A DNA stretch of 7,979 bases, taken from the IMG/VR virus record IMGVR_UViG_2740892230_000037. One strand, written 5' to 3'. Below, piece after piece: positions 1 to 7,027 of this stretch. The position numbers and the translations under genes were made by a program. Origin of the DNA: a virus. Lineage: Duplodnaviria; Heunggongvirae; Uroviricota; Caudoviricetes. Positions within the stretch are counted from its first letter, which is position 1. Each line of letters opens with the position of its first letter. The notes below the pieces were generated by a model. The model did not search any database. It saw only the letters and a program-made list of their open reading frames with translations, and had not been told where the DNA came from.

Positions 1-1020
1 CTACTTGCTAACCACGAGCGGCAAATCCAGTGTTGGTGTGATTTTTGTTTTACGATCGTAAATCAACACCTGATTTTCTGTTTTATGCCCGCTGAAAATT
101 TGTTTGTCGCGACTGCTGCCTTCGTAATCTGAGATCCCCTTGGCTTTTATGTCGTGAAAATTGCACCCGAACGGAACGCCAACTTTTTGCTCGGCTGCGC
201 GTTTAGCCTGATTCCACCAGTTATTCAGCGTTTTAGCTATGACTTTCCCGCCTTTGGTTGTATTGATCACATATTCGCATGTACAGGAAGATACATTTCG
301 GGCTAACTGGATCGCTGTACGTAATCGCGGTGACCATTCCTTGATTTGTTTGGTGCCGGTTTTGTTTTGCTCAATGTAGATCCCTTTATCCATAATATCC
401 TGCCATTTCAACTCAAGCACATCACCGAGTCTTGCCGCACAGAGATAGGAAATCTCCATTGCAATGCGTAACTGTGGAATTGCTTCCGCATATATCGCCG
501 CATACTGTTCATCGGTGATGTAAACAGTGCGGGCTTTAAGAGAGAATTTTCTGACTCCTTTGCATGGGTTATTCTTCACATACCCACGCTCATATCCCCA
601 CCCGTATACTCGACTCAGGCTTGCCAGTTCATGATTTGCCTGGGTCTTGCTCTCAAGCCCTCGTTTATCCATGAAAATTCTTACCTGCTCAGTTTTGACA
701 TTATCAGCAAGCACTTTTCCGAATACCATCAGCAACGCCTTCTGATGTTGTCGATAATCTTTTTGGGTTCGGGGGGCCAGTTCTGTAAATGCAGGGGAGT
801 CCATAAACATGTGCCATAATTTAGCTACGGTCATTATGTTGTGGAGTTTTGCTTTTTCCAGTTCATAATTTTGCCAGACTTTAGCTACGCTGGTTTTCCG
901 CACTCTTCCTAGCCCTATACTTCTTGTACTTCCTTCGGGTTTCCACACGTAACTGTAACCATTCGATCTAACCCGCGGTGGCAGTACATTATCTTTTTTA
1001 TTTTTTCTTGGTCTTCCCAT
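1..1020 (-). CDS. int: Tyrosine site-specific integrase, lambda Int family (complete, 339 aa)
   Basis: Uninterrupted minus-strand ORF with ATG at 1018-1020 and TAG at 1-3. Basic N-terminal segment (MGRPRKNKKDNVLPPRVRSNGYSY) and C-terminal FHDIKAKG...SGHKTENQVLIYDRK tail follow the layout of lambda Int, including a Tyr in the expected catalytic position. Its start is overlapped by the upstream small ORF, as in lambda xis-int. Confidence 0.92.
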   Translation of the reverse strand: MGRPRKNKKDNVLPPRVRSNGYSYVWKPEGSTRSIGLGRVRKTSVAKVWQNYELEKAKLHNIMTVAKLWHMFMDSPAFTELAPRTQKDYRQHQKALLMVFGKVLADNVKTEQVRIFMDKRGLESKTQANHELASLSRVYGWGYERGYVKNNPCKGVRKFSLKARTVYITDEQYAAIYAEAIPQLRIAMEISYLCAARLGDVLELKWQDIMDKGIYIEQNKTGTKQIKEWSPRLRTAIQLARNVSSCTCEYVINTTKGGKVIAKTLNNWWNQAKRAAEQKVGVPFGCNFHDIKAKGISDYEGSSRDKQIFSGHKTENQVLIYDRKTKITPTLDLPLVVSK

Positions 1021-1397: not shown

Positions 1398-1570
1398 TTA
1401 AAAATCAGCCTGACTCGGGATCAGTTTTTGCCAGATAGCTGAAACGTATTTTGCCTGATAACGGGCGTCATCAAGTGCATTATGGCGCTCACCTTCGAAT
1501 GGGATAGCAGTTCTGGCATCGAAGTCTATGGCTTTCCCCAGCTCAACGATTGTGCGTACATCGCGATCGT
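1398..1570 (-). CDS. DEDDh 3'-5' exonuclease, C-terminal fragment with stop (allele 1)
   Basis: Minus-frame translation DRDVRTIVELGKAIDFDARTAIPFEGERHNALDDARYQAKYVSAIWQKLIPSQADF ending at the stop at 1398-1400. Contains the Exo III motif H-x-A-x-x-D-A (HNALDDA). Truncated upstream by gap 1571-1580. Confidence 0.7.
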
Positions 1571-1580
1571 NNNNNNNNNN

Positions 1581-1843
1581 GCAGTTTTTGCCAGATGGCT
1601 GAAACGTATTTCGCCTGGTAACGTGCATCGTTCAGAGCGTTATGGCGTTCACCTTCGAATGGAATAGTCGTTCTTGCGTCGAAATCCATCACCAGTCCCA
1701 GAGCAACCATCGTTCTTACATCGCGATCATTGGTGTAACGCCACGGGCAGGGGATCCCCTGCCGTTCATATGAACGGCGTAAAATCACGTTGTCGAAAGT
1801 TGCACCGTCACCCCAGACCTGAACAAAAAATTCACCGGAGTTT
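1581..1843 (-). CDS. DEDDh 3'-5' exonuclease, internal to C-terminal fragment (allele 2)
   Basis: In-frame translation NSGEFFVQVWGDGATFDNVILRRSYERQGIPCPWRYTNDRDVRTMVALGLVMDFDARTTIPFEGERHNALNDARYQAKYVSAIWQKL. Carries an Exo II-like FD motif (GATFDNVIL) and Exo III (HNALNDA). Bounded by N runs on both sides. Confidence 0.7.
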
Positions 1844-2537: not shown

Positions 2538-2732
2538 GATCGGGGCATCAGGATTTTTTCCCATGGTTTCAAGGTCGATCATTAGATGGTTACACGTCCT
2601 GCTGGTGGATGTGATTTCTTGATGACCGTTCACCTTAATTGAGTGATCTGCCGTCTCGCCAGTTTCATTATCGCTATCGTGATGCTGATTGCCGCCAGTG
2701 TTCTCCTTGTGTGGATGTTCAGCGCCTTCCAT
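2538..2732 (-). CDS. DEDDh exonuclease N-terminal fragment (allele C)
   Basis: ATG at 2730-2732; [65 protein letters not shown]. The 33 nt preceding gap 2734-2743 are identical to the 33 nt preceding gap 2194-2203. Confidence 0.6.
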
Positions 2733-2744
2733 TNNNNNNNNNNC

Positions 2745-2885
2745 ACACGTCCTGCTGGTGGATGTGATAACGTGATGACCGTTCACCGTAATTAAGGGAT
2801 CTGCCGTCTCGCCAGTTTCACTATCGCTGGCGTGATCCTGAGCGCTACCAGCATTCTCCTTGTGTGGATGTTCAGCGCCTTCCAT
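2745..2885 (-). CDS. DEDDh exonuclease N-terminal leader fragment (allele D)
   Basis: ATG at 2883-2885; [47 protein letters not shown]. It is in the same frame as, and 57 nt downstream of, the amber stop of the zinc-ribbon ORF at 2940-2942. Confidence 0.6.
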
Positions 2886-2939
2886 TTCCTTCGGATCATC
2901 TTCCTGAACTTCAACCTGATACTCTTCATCGAATGTTTC

Positions 2940-3085
2940 CTAGTATGTTGCGTCGCCCATCACCGCGCCACAATCAGGGCAGTTGCCGCCGCCGGTCTGA
3001 CCGCAGGCGGTGCAGACTTTTTCCACTTCCTGTTGCGCCACTGGTTCAGGCTGTTTCGTTTCTGGCTCGTTTTGTAACGCATTTG
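2940..3085 (-). CDS. C-terminal end of zinc-ribbon protein (Q/E/P linker plus CxxC-x9-CxxC), ending in TAG
   Basis: In-frame translation ...[47 protein letters not shown] then the TAG stop at 2940-2942. 5' side truncated by gap 3086-3095. Confidence 0.65.
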
Positions 3086-3095
3086 NNNNNNNNNN

Positions 3096-3284
3096 CCATC
3101 GAATATTTCCTGGTATGTTGCGTCACCCATCACCGCACCACAATCAGGGCAGTTGCCGCCACCGCTCTGACCGCAGGCGGTGCAGATCTTTTCCGGTTCC
3201 TGTTGCACTACTGGTTCAGGTTGTTTCGTTTCTGGCTCGTTTTGTTGCGTATTTGGGCTGTTTTGTTCCGCTTTCTGGTCGTTC
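3096..3284 (-). CDS. Zinc-ribbon module, allele with CAG (Gln) in place of the amber stop, reading through toward the exonuclease leader
   Basis: [63 protein letters not shown], with no stop before gap 3086-3095. The CAG codon at 3110-3112 aligns to the TAG at 2940-2942. Confidence 0.6.
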
Positions 3285-3294
3285 NNNNNNNNNN

Positions 3295-3450
3295 AGTTCC
3301 GTTCCGATTCATGCTGGTTCTGGTTTACAGAATCGCGGGTCTGGATCCCCTTAACCCATTTCGGATCATTCGGGTCGCTAATCCCTGCAACAAATTCTCC
3401 GCGAGAGGCAGCAAGCAACTTATCGGCGTCAGGCTGGCTGATATTGGCTG
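3295..3450 (-). CDS. Shared module fragment ([51 protein letters not shown])
   Basis: In-frame minus-strand translation. The same module, with substitutions, sits at the C-terminal end of the 4609-6133 ORF and in 3461-3712. Confidence 0.6.
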
Positions 3451-3460
3451 NNNNNNNNNN

Positions 3461-4405
3461 TCAACAAATTCACCACGTGATACTGCAAGCAGTTCATCGG
3501 CGTCAGGCTGGCTGATATTGGCTGCCTGCATAATTTTCTTTACTTCGTCAGCGGTAACTTTTACCGGTTCTGGTTGTTCAGAATTTTGTGCGGTATTTGC
3601 ATTTTGCGGTAAGCCTGTGTATGTGCCATTTTTTCGGGCAAAATATTCTTCTTTTGTGATTTCAGTAGCCCCGGCAGCCAGCGCCTTATCCAGACCAGAA
3701 AGTTTGTTTGCGNNNNNNNNNNACGTGCGAAGTATTCCTCTTTTGTGATTTCCGTAGCTCCCAGGGCCAGTGCTTTTTCCAGACCAGAAAATTTGTTTGC
3801 GCGACCGTATTTTTCGCCATCCTTGTCGGTGAAGAGGAAGTAGAACGGCCCCTCACGCTCTACAGATGGTTCGACTTCCACTTTGCATTCGGTTTTTTCG
3901 TTGTCCGGAATTGCCGTTTCCACTGCATCAGTTTCTGGTACTGNNNNNNNNNNAGCTTCCGGCGCGGTTTCATTTTTTGGGATATCAGATACCTCAGTTT
4001 CCACTGCATCAGTTTGTGTTTCTGATGACTGGAGAACATCAACAGTGCCCAGGTCTGTTTCTTCATTCTCAAACACGCCCTTTGTCGTCAGGTATTCGCA
4101 GATATATTTGTTCAGTGCTACGGGATCTTTGTGAATGTNNNNNNNNNNTGACGGGAGAGTACCAGCTGTGCCCTGATTTGTTCCTTCGTCATCTTCAAAC
4201 ACGCCCTTGGTAGTCAGGTATTCAGTGATGTATTTGTTCAGTGCTACGGGATCTTTGTGAATGTCGATCGGACGCTCACGGACAAGGCCAAAAATAGTCT
4301 GACGGTCGTAGCGAACGGCATCGGGTTGTTTGCGCATTGATGCGGAAATGCGCTTCCAGTCTTCGCGATCTTTGTCGATAACTTCATTTTTTGCCCAGCG
4401 ATGGA
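3461..4405 (-). CDS. Four gap-separated fragments (3461-3712, 3723-3943, 3954-4138, 4149-4405) of one or more paralogues with a different N-terminal domain joined to the same shared module
   Basis: Translations: (4149-4405) ...HRWAKNEVIDKDREDWKRISASMRKQPDAVRYDRQTIFGLVRERPIDIHKDPVALNKYITEYLTTKGVFEDDEG...; (3954-4138) IHKDPVALNKYICEYLTTKGVFENEETDLG...; (3723-3943) ...VEREGPFYFLFTDKDGEKYGRANKFSGLEKALALGATEITKEEYFAR; (3461-3712) [83 protein letters not shown]. Adjacent fragments overlap as divergent alleles. Confidence 0.55.
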
Positions 4406-4415
4406 NNNNNNNNNN

Positions 4416-4598
4416 CTTTTTCCGGTTCCTGTTGCGCTACTGGCTCAGGTTGTTTCGTTTCTGGCTCGTTTTGTAACGCATTTGGGCTGTTTTGTTCCGC
4501 TTTCTGGCTGTTTTGTTCCGCTTTCTGGCCGTTCTGTTCCGTTTCTTGCTGGTTCTGATTCACTGAATCGCGGGTTTCAATCCCCTTCACCCATTTCG
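4416..4598 (-). CDS. Linker fragment of the shared module, containing a 21-bp tandem repeat
   Basis: [60 protein letters not shown], bounded by gaps on both sides. Confidence 0.55.
4464..4548. repeat. 21-bp tandem repeat (unit gctgttttgttccgctttctg, 2 perfect plus 2 degenerate copies) encoding QKAEQNS heptads
   Basis: Perfect units at 4486-4506 and 4507-4527, degenerate units on either side. Further copies of the unit lie at 3256-3276 and near 3061-3085, next to gaps. Confidence 0.85.
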
Positions 4599-4608
4599 NN
4601 NNNNNNNN

Positions 4609-6133
4609 CGTTCCGTTCCGATTCATGCTGGTTCTGGTTCACAGAATCGCGAGTCTGGATCCCCTTGACCCATTTCGGATCATTAGGGTCGCTAATCCCC
4701 TCAACAAATTCACCACGCGATACAGCAAGTAACTTATCGGCGTCAGGCTGGCTGATATTGGCTGCCTGCATAATTTTGTTTACTTCGTCAGCGGTGACTT
4801 TTACTTGGTTAGCGGAACTCACTTGCGACTGAGCATCCAGCGACTGCGCGTTCTGGCCATGTTCAGTTGTATCCGGTTCCATTGTTTCAGTTGTTGCCTG
4901 TTCACCTGCCATTGCGTCAGATGGTTGTGGTTTTTCTTCTTCTGTTTCACGCTCAGTAACCACCTCGCGGTTAATTTCTTCCAGGATATCTTTTTCCGGC
5001 GTATGCCGGGCAGCTGTGAGAGTTTCCTTGCTGGGGTTCTCGTGATCAGTTTCCGTCAAATAGGCGTTGATATACCCCTGAAGGCGTCCCGGGTAGTGAT
5101 AAAATTCAGGGTGTGCGCTTCGGATAAGTGCAAAAATAGCGGCGCGGGAATAGTCCAGAATACCCGGGGTTGCACGAAGTGCTGCGGACCATTCTTTGAA
5201 CGGACTTTCTTTGTTCAGGACTACTTCTTTTGCGCGACGATAAACGCTGCCCGGAATTTCATAAATATTAAAATCCATCGGAAGTGTGGCTGCTGCAATC
5301 TCCACATCCAGTGTGTCGAGGGTGTGTACTAAATTCGGATTGCGATCGGTTTTGTTCCCACCGCCAGCATTAGCACCGGAAGCCGTGCGGGTGATGCGTG
5401 AAACACGATTTCCTTTCATCCACTCTTTTGTCAGCAGACCCCGATCAGTGTAGTCAGTGTCCAGGTATGCTTCGAAAAAAGCAGTTATTAGTCCCAGGTC
5501 TGAATTACCAGGATTAGGGAAAACTTTGTCAGTGTCACGAACCAGTTTGTGGAGGTCGCGAATCTCCAGCGAGTCGAGCAGACTGGTTTTATGCGAAATA
5601 GCCAGGGCAGTAACAGCCGGTAGTTCTTCAGCCCGTGCAATGTGTAATGCCTGGAGTTCGTCGCGTGAAACGTGCGTTACTGATTTTTCGCTGCCGTGTT
5701 GAGCAAGCCAACGAATGGGCAGTTCCTGACCGGAGACAGGCAGAAGCATGCTCTCCTCAATCTCAGTCATGTCTTCGCCGTTGATGTTGGTATTGTCAGT
5801 GCTGGCTGGTTTGTCCTGAACAGAGGGGGAAGGGCCGATAAATGTCATTGTGATGCCATCTTTCCCGCCTTTTTCATAGCGGTTGCAGAATTCAGTATCA
5901 AACACGCCTTCTGGCGGAAGGTCGTCAACAACGGGCAAATTGACGCGGACGGGTTTTTTAAAGTCGTCTTCATCATAATCGTTGTCATCCATTGCGGTAA
6001 TGCAGCGGGAGATTGCAACAGATAATTTTTTTGCTGTAGTCCAGTAAAAACCACCTTTAATTCCTAGGCGTTTTCTTACTTTGTCATTTTTTGCTTCGCA
6101 ATATAGTGCAAATTCTTCTTTATCAGTGCTCAT
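4609..6133 (-). CDS. Large early-left protein, N-terminal 508 aa (5' complete, 3' cut by gap 4599-4608); tentatively RecE-N-terminal-like, possibly an intact counterpart of Qin-prophage ydfE
   Basis: ATG at 6131-6133 with a GAGG about 10 nt upstream; long protein-like ORF with an acidic TE-rich region. It ends in ...[56 protein letters not shown], the module that elsewhere continues into linker and zinc ribbon. The resemblance of its central region to the RecE N-terminal half is from memory only. Confidence 0.8.
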
Positions 6134-6226: not shown

Positions 6227-6418
6227 TTAAAATCCTGCCGGGATTTCGTTATTATCCTGGTGAATAACTTTATCGACCGGGTAACAGTTACCGGGAATTT
6301 TCTGTTCGGTTGCTGCAGTCACACACTCCTGCATTGTCCTGTGAACACTGACTGCAATATCAACTGGCTCTCCGGAAACAAGAAAAACTGTCAGAACAAG
6401 TGCAAATGCTGTATTCAT
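6227..6418 (-). CDS. ydfD: YdfD-like small lysis protein with a hydrophobic N-terminus (63 aa)
   Basis: ATG at 6416-6418 overlaps the dicB stop as ATGA; MNTAFALVLTVFLVSGEPVDIAVSVHRTMQECVTAATEQKIPGNCYPVDKVIHQDNNEIPAGF. It sits immediately downstream of dicB, as in the Qin prophage of E. coli K-12. Confidence 0.7.
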   Translation of the reverse strand: MNTAFALVLTVFLVSGEPVDIAVSVHRTMQECVTAATEQKIPGNCYPVDKVIHQDNNEIPAGF

Positions 6419-6569
6419 TGCCAGCATCCTTTTTGTATCGGACGTAAACGGGCCAGCATTGAAAGAATGCATATTTTATTTAATAGCTCCCGTTCGTGTT
6501 TTCTCTTGTTAATGGCATCTTCAGTAAATACAGGGTTACTGATAGTGACACCAATTTCAAAACAACCTT
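6415..6569 (-). CDS. dicB: dicB allele 1, C-terminal fragment (5' cut by gap 6570-6579)
   Basis: ...GCFEIGVTISNPVFTEDAINKRKHERELLNKICILSMLARLRPIQKGCWQ with stop at 6415-6417. About 90 percent nucleotide identity to 6606-6760. Confidence 0.7.
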
Positions 6570-6605
6570 NNNNNNNNNNCGTCAGAATAAGTGCAAATAC
6601 TGGAT

Positions 6606-6794
6606 TCATTGTGCACATCCTTTTGGCATCAGACGTAAACGGGCCAGCATTGAAACAATGCATACTTTATTTAATAACTCCCGTTCGTGTTTTCTTTTGT
6701 TAATGGCATCTTCAGTAAATACAGGATTACTGATAGTGACACCAATTTCAAAACAACCTTCAGACGTATTAACGTTTGGTAATAACGTTTCCAT
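6606..6794 (-). CDS. dicB: DicB cell-division inhibitor (complete, 62 aa)
   Basis: ATG at 6792-6794 with GAGGA 7 nt upstream; METLLPNVNTSEGCFEIGVTISNPVFTEDAINKRKHERELLNKVCIVSMLARLRLMPKGCAQ. The stop overlaps the ATG of a second ydfD allele (6580-6609, cut by the gap). DicF lies 180 nt upstream on the same strand. Confidence 0.8.
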   Translation of the reverse strand: METLLPNVNTSEGCFEIGVTISNPVFTEDAINKRKHERELLNKVCIVSMLARLRLMPKGCAQ

Positions 6795-6969: not shown

Positions 6970-7012
6970 AAAAAGGGCGGCAGAGCAGTCACGGAGTAAA
7001 ACTGATACCGCC
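6970..7012 (-). terminator. Intrinsic terminator forming the DicF 3' end
   Basis: GC-rich stem (GGCGGUA...UGCCGCC) followed by five U on the minus-strand transcript (A run at plus 6970-6974). Confidence 0.65.
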
Positions 7013-7027
7013 AAACGTCACCAGAAA
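6975..7027 (-). ncRNA. dicF: DicF small RNA (ftsZ-targeting sRNA of the dicB operon)
   Basis: Reverse complement of 6975-7027 reads TTTCTGGTGACGTTTGGCGGTATCAGTTTTACTCCGTGACTGCTCTGCCGCCC followed by TTTTT, which matches the 53-nt DicF sequence as I recall it, and it lies directly upstream of dicB. Confidence 0.8.

Follow-up and report, generated by a model that had tools for sequence, protein, structure and literature searches.

A rare amber codon at a Dcm site in one of several prophage copies of a DEDDh exonuclease gene

On the minus strand of a 7,979-nt stretch of viral DNA (hereafter the window, meaning the stretch at its full length), a reading frame for a zinc-ribbon protein ends at a TAG, and the same frame stays open beyond it into the leader of a DEDDh exonuclease. 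In a neighbouring piece the aligned codon is CAG. Does this locus encode two proteins that a single base can split or fuse, or one protein whose gene has suffered a nonsense mutation, and how did the TAG arise? The first-pass annotation favoured a single-base polymorphism, and considered amber suppression and reinitiation as routes of expression.

Paralogous prophage copies in the window

Sixteen contig pieces make up the window, with 15 spacers, each of exactly 10 N, set between them to form a scaffold. Its relevant genes all lie on the minus strand and comprise an integrase, an excisionase, fragments of a large gene, a DUF1482 (ydfD-like) gene, dicB and the DicF sRNA. The main features are as follows.

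1-1020, minus strand: integrase
1398-1843, minus strand: C-terminal end of the DEDDh domain, two paralogous fragments; stop codon at 1398-1400
1854-2193, 2204-2527 and 2538-2733, minus strand: spacer and start of the DEDDh domain, three further paralogous fragments, differing from one another and from the piece 2744-3085
3295-4598, minus strand: middle of the gene from several copies (RecE-like, YdfE-type), with a 21-nt tandem-repeat linker
4609-6133, minus strand: N-terminal 508 codons of one copy, of the MSTDKEEF... type; ATG at 6131-6133; 99.7% identical to an 813-aa intact gene (L007)
6227-6472 and 6415-6663, minus strand: DUF1482/ydfD-like gene, two variants
6606-6794, minus strand: dicB
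6975-7026, minus strand: DicF antisense sRNA, upstream of dicB (Rfam RF00039, 76.7 bits)
1165, 1571, 1844, 2194, 2528, 2734, 3086, 3285, 3451, 3713, 3944, 4139, 4406, 4599 and 6570: spacer gaps

Each piece was mapped onto two complete reference genes. Neighbouring pieces were found to be overlapping fragments of the same gene from different copies: four mutually different pieces span the spacer and the beginning of the DEDDh domain, and three the zinc-ribbon region, with differences between pairs of pieces ranging from 5 in 69 nt up to 24 in 180 nt. Such a set of different, overlapping pieces of one gene indicates that the source genome carries at least four paralogous prophage copies of the large exonuclease gene. 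The assembler broke these copies at branch points, and open reading frames that run across gaps, as well as ATG 'starts' at the ends of pieces, are artefacts of the scaffold layout. The MEGAEH 'start' that the first-pass annotation had seen in pieces 1854-2193 and 2538-2733 is of this kind, since contig ends happen to fall there. The window thus carries a warning: apparent 'alleles' and piece-end ATG 'starts' in stacked paralogous contig fragments are products of the assembly.

The 21-nt tandem repeat in the linker encodes (Q)KAEQNS. It is present in 3.0 copies at 3221-3283 and in 4.9 copies at 4450-4551, so that linker length varies among the paralogous copies with the number of repeats. Note also that the DicF, dicB and DUF1482 genes are arranged in the window as in the Qin prophage of E. 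coli K-12.

The intact gene and the interrupted copy

The sequence around the two codons in question is laid out as follows.

2744-2885, minus strand: His-rich spacer leading into the DEDDh domain (a 10-residue start, running on to TSTSRTC); the ATG at 2883-2885 is the internal Met593 of the intact protein
2886-2939, minus strand: 18 in-frame sense codons after the amber, ordinary acidic spacer in the intact protein
2939-2943, minus strand: CTAGG, the deaminated form of the Dcm site CCAGG, with T at the former 5-methylcytosine position
2940-2942, minus strand: amber codon TAG, replacing the CAG of Gln575 (823-aa numbering) of the intact gene
2970-3014, minus strand: four-cysteine zinc-ribbon motif of 15 residues, TAG copy
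3109-3113, minus strand: intact Dcm site CCAGG around the CAG codon at 3110-3112 of the paralogous copy
3140-3184, minus strand: zinc-ribbon motif of 15 residues, CAG copy

Upstream of the TAG, the piece 2744-3085 encodes 47 residues (the last part is also given as a 25-residue sequence). Across the interruption the frame reads the last 13 residues before the stop, the 18 residues after it and then the 10 residues that open the His-rich spacer; from the ATG at 2883-2885 it continues with an 18-residue sequence and stays open to the contig end. The piece 3096-3284 (minus strand) reads a 29-residue sequence followed by (G), with CAG at 3110-3112 and QEIFD(G) onward, and is open as far as this 189-nt piece reaches. 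At the level of sequence, the TAG, the 18-codon open frame and the CAG in the paralogous piece were therefore described correctly in the first-pass annotation, as was the content of the segment that it placed at 2745-3085; only the start of that segment needs correction, to 2744. However, with 17 differences over the 160 positions that they share, the two pieces are paralogues from separate prophage copies rather than alleles that a single base sets apart. The nearest CAG relatives of the TAG piece sit in other genomes, at 98.2% identity with 5 other differences.

We asked what the gene looks like where it is contiguous. The 342-nt TAG piece falls inside one annotated CDS in complete E. coli genomes and phage records, under the names 'exonuclease', '3'-5' exonuclease', '3'-5' exoribonuclease domain-containing protein' and 'exodeoxyribonuclease VIII'. 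In complete E. coli genomes the intact gene is a single uninterrupted open reading frame of 813-823 aa. Four of the intact examples that we fetched measure 2472 bp (823 aa) and a fifth, with another N-terminus, 2442 bp (813 aa); all five read without interruption through a 20-residue sequence, (Y/N)QVEVQE(D/N)DP(E/K)(K/E) and a further 10 residues. The frame after the TAG matches this uninterrupted gene residue for residue (over a 34-residue sequence), and the in-frame continuation is therefore not due to chance. The aligned codon is CAG in the loci L001-L004 and L007-L010. Within the 813-823 aa family, the copy 2744-3085 stands apart in that its reading frame is broken, by the TAG at codon 575.

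The modules of the intact protein follow in the order variable N-terminus, RecE-like middle, 21-nt-repeat linker, CxxC...CxxC zinc ribbon, acidic His-rich spacer and Rv2179c-like DEDDh 3'-5' exonuclease. PF16473 (Rv2179c-like) matches residues 642-813 of a full-length homologue (E=1.5e-67, 227 bits, cut-off 27), and precomputed Pfam matches also place YdfE_N and YdfE_C in the gene. The window pieces 1175-2733 align to the Rv2179c-like DEDDh part at 84-98% identity, and the zinc-ribbon motif is kept throughout the homologues as well as in RecE. A search of solved structures with the DEDDh domain gave only weak matches to an exodeoxyribonuclease (8kel, 8ken; E about 1e-6), no advance on the Pfam assignment. 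The gene lies between the DUF1482 gene/dicB and xis/int at the left end of the prophage, in the same order in the window and in complete genomes.

These data support the view that a single polypeptide with the module order given in the first-pass annotation was ancestral, that in the intact gene the in-frame relation extends beyond the 18 codons through the DEDDh domain, and that in one copy a nonsense mutation has replaced the CAG of an intact gene. They do not point to a new gene system that is split or fused; the fused form is already annotated as a single CDS of 2442-2472 bp in thousands of genomes.

The closest known relatives are the E. coli lambdoid-prophage exonucleases of 813-823 aa (WP_272795841.1, WP_137442536.1 and WP_042631013.1; YdfE_N, YdfE_C and Rv2179c-like), to which the window fragments are 91-99.7% identical. 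They share the order of modules and the neighbours dicF, dicB, the ydfD-like DUF1482 gene, xis and int with the window. The window differs in that it holds fragments of several copies, one of them with an amber at codon 575. The ydfE pseudogene of the K-12 Qin prophage (b1577), after which Pfam's N-terminal and middle families of this gene are named, occupies the same place, after dicF, dicB and ydfD and before the integrase. However, K-12 ydfE was cut by IS2E rather than by a nonsense codon, with loss of the zinc ribbon and the nuclease domain. The prophage exonuclease gene is the intact form of this pseudogene.

Frequency, recurrence and context of the amber codon

To determine how common the amber is, we used 55-nt queries with the variable base in the centre, so that the 28-nt exact word of megablast must span the codon. 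The sample consisted of 5426 complete genomes.

CAG form: 7207 places in 4274 of the 5426 genomes (55-mer match)
TAG form: 2 places in 2 of the 5426 genomes (55-mer match)

The two carriers have the identical codon, in a 3'-5' exonuclease gene in rl0044 and in recE in UTAK-6, and in RefSeq both genes carry the pseudogene flag for an internal stop. In IMG/VR a scan brought up a single further TAG copy, UViG_2541047728_000012 (L011), which differs in sequence from the window (95% identical); its gene is contiguous and, apart from the amber, intact through to the normal stop. The TAG 26-mer was not found in the GTDB species-representative genomes. The amber thus occurs in ~3 in 10,000 copies. Counting fused against split versions among homologues, as the first-pass annotation had proposed, shows that the fused gene is the norm, and lends no support to its picture of a balanced polymorphism that 'splits or fuses' two proteins, given the rarity of the TAG and the pseudogene status of both TAG genes in the complete genomes.

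The sequence context of the codon suggests how the stop arose. Codon 575 lies in TAC CAG GAA, which contains the Dcm site CCAGG with the C of CAG as the inner cytosine, and CCAGG is present at this codon in all CAG homologues compared. In lacI, the hot spots at which amber mutations arise spontaneously are due to GC-to-AT changes that hit the second C of Dcm sites (CCAGG), as recounted in a review (PMC12606429) of the work of Coulondre et al. (1978). Vsr very-short-patch (VSP) repair, which acts on T:G mismatches in CTWGG/CCWGG, normally counteracts the deamination of 5-methylcytosine at Dcm sites (PMC2715241). We consider it very probable that the TAG of the window is a spontaneous C-to-T nonsense mutation at such a hot spot, in one of the at least four prophage copies. 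Dcm would methylate the inner cytosine of CCAGG at TAC CAG GAA, the 5-methylcytosine would deaminate to thymine, and where very-short-patch repair missed the T:G mismatch the site would become CTAGG and the codon amber. The cytosine of codon 575 was presumably methylated in the source strain.

Recurrence fits this origin. The four TAG copies (window, rl0044, UTAK-6 recE and the IMG/VR copy L011) differ from one another at 16-51 of about 340 positions. Among the fetched loci, the closest CAG copy differs at 5 positions for the window, at 10 for rl0044 (L005) and at 11 for L011, and the copy in UTAK-6 lies in a different gene, recE. The differing backgrounds, together with the closer CAG copies, speak for separate events rather than one inherited allele. 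By this comparison of sequences, the same CAG-to-TAG change has arisen independently at least four times, once in recE.

As a measure of site preference, we scanned with a query of 4795 nt in which every in-frame CAG-to-TAG change was represented as a 55-mer, covering 39 codon sites (3 of them Dcm) with up to six variants each. Five genomes matched, corresponding to 4 events. The Dcm codon 575 accounted for two of them, and the Dcm codon 805 (TAC CAG GCA) and the non-Dcm codon 140 for one each. The two codon-805 genomes were counted as one event because truncated protein and insertion site are the same in both. Three of the 4 events thus fell on 3 of 39 codons (P about 0.002 for at least 3 of 4 under uniform targeting), a figure that comprises 4 events only and codons of unequal detection power, although the neighbouring non-Dcm codon 587, where one sequence variant matched 3709 places, offered similar power. 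Since events were few, the scan supports the Dcm mechanism rather than proving it. An apparent codon-556 TAG match of a 55-mer was rejected; the alignment had run on from the codon-575 seed, and L005 has Gln at 556.

In the window, the second in-frame Dcm codon, Gln805 (TAC CAG GC-), is intact in piece 1581-1843 (Dcm site at 1613-1617, minus strand), while piece 1175-1570 has TAT CAG at codon 805, which is not a Dcm site. The codon-805 TAG is found in the Japanese isolates JKHS016 and AST198 (L008 and L009, locus position about 3528), where the resulting 804-aa protein (WP_001575619.1) is annotated as a normal CDS.

The parallel with the lacI amber hot spots (Coulondre, Miller, Farabaugh & Gilbert 1978), as presented in the review PMC12606429, lies in these points: C-to-T at the second C of CCAGG, CAG to TAG, recurring independently. 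The difference lies in the material, which in lacI was a laboratory collection of mutants and here is a prophage gene in natural genome collections, read from sequence alone.

We also considered that the T might be a sequencing or assembly artefact, either a consensus error or a chimera of collapsed near-identical prophage copies, with the real copy reading CAG. The window, a heavily fragmented and repeat-rich assembly, lends itself to such an error, with its 10-N spacers between 16 pieces and at least four paralogous copies stacked upon one another, and the 342-nt TAG piece has no exact match in complete genomes (best match 98.2%). On the other hand, a collapsed consensus would show T only if some reads had T, the T sits in a known mutational hot-spot context, and the identical change is present in three independent contiguous assemblies. 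We therefore regard an artefact as unlikely.

Consequences of the stop codon and the link to RecE

If the TAG is a spontaneous mutation, the copy that carries it would give only a 574-residue N-terminal fragment, with the zinc ribbon but without the nuclease, and would be a recent pseudogene. Could the split nevertheless be functional, with the 574-aa zinc-ribbon protein and a separate DEDDh exonuclease made by reinitiation at Met593 or by readthrough through amber suppression? The frame is open, an ATG lies 54 nt past the stop (18 codons downstream) and is preceded by AAGGA, and the DEDDh domain is otherwise intact in the contiguous TAG copies. However, an intact downstream domain is equally expected of a recent pseudogene. 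The AAGGA (-5.7 kcal/mol), the sole Shine-Dalgarno-like match before Met593, abuts the ATG and so lacks usable spacing, which argues against the reinitiation proposed in the first-pass annotation. Its suggestion of amber suppression fares no better: a search for tRNA genes in the window found none, so no suppressor tRNA is encoded within it, and the stop, which occurs in no more than 2 of about 7200 copies and has not spread past single genomes, is not conserved among homologues. Wild E. coli are, as a rule, free of amber suppressors. A functional split is thus very unlikely.

Recurrent mutation at one site could also suggest a reversible switch, in which C-to-T change through Dcm and T-to-C change through Vsr at CTAGG would turn expression of the nuclease domain on and off, much as at a contingency locus. 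VSP repair does favour CCWGG over CTWGG (PMC2715241). However, the observed frequency of the TAG fits rare mutation and not a switch, the second in-frame Dcm codon behaves alike, which points to a general effect of sequence context, and no phenotype is known; we consider a switch of this kind exceedingly improbable. We give barely more credence to a low-frequency form of it, in which a reversible Dcm/Vsr change would uncouple the zinc-ribbon protein from the DEDDh nuclease, while reinitiation at Met593 might still supply a little of the nuclease. Neither the functional-split reading nor the reversible-switch reading is favoured by the evidence.

The TAG copy is thus most probably an ordinary, rare pseudogene allele, and the phenomenon is already explained by a long-known mutational mechanism. 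Its modest value is that it illustrates cleanly, in natural sequences, the Dcm hot spot originally described in lacI. Beyond housekeeping it matters little, the 'fusion' being the normal annotated gene and the 'split' a rare nonsense allele of a kind that annotation pipelines already flag as pseudogenes. RefSeq is uneven on the ambers of this gene: genes stopped at codons 575 and 140 are recorded as pseudogenes with an internal stop, and those that end at codon 805 as a regular 'exonuclease' CDS of reduced length (L005, L008-L010).

The occurrence of the same Dcm codon, and of the same amber, in UTAK-6 recE (L006, 1905-4505) is one of several likenesses to RecE (exodeoxyribonuclease VIII of the Rac prophage), whose middle module, zinc ribbon and acidic His-rich spacer recur in the prophage exonuclease. 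The two differ at the C-terminus, where RecE has its own exonuclease domain and the prophage exonuclease the Rv2179c-like DEDDh domain. NCBIfam PRK09709 (NF007259) aligns residues 246-626 to model positions 271-603 only. Membership of the RecE family was rejected on the score for NF007259 (276 bits where the cut-off is 1269) and the Rv2179c-like C-terminus, and the label 'exodeoxyribonuclease VIII' in some phage records is loose. In RecE and the DEDDh exonuclease, the zinc-ribbon/spacer module (2886-3014 in the window) is thus joined to two unrelated nuclease domains, and the mosaic junction between the two genes lies just after the MEGAEHPH spacer.
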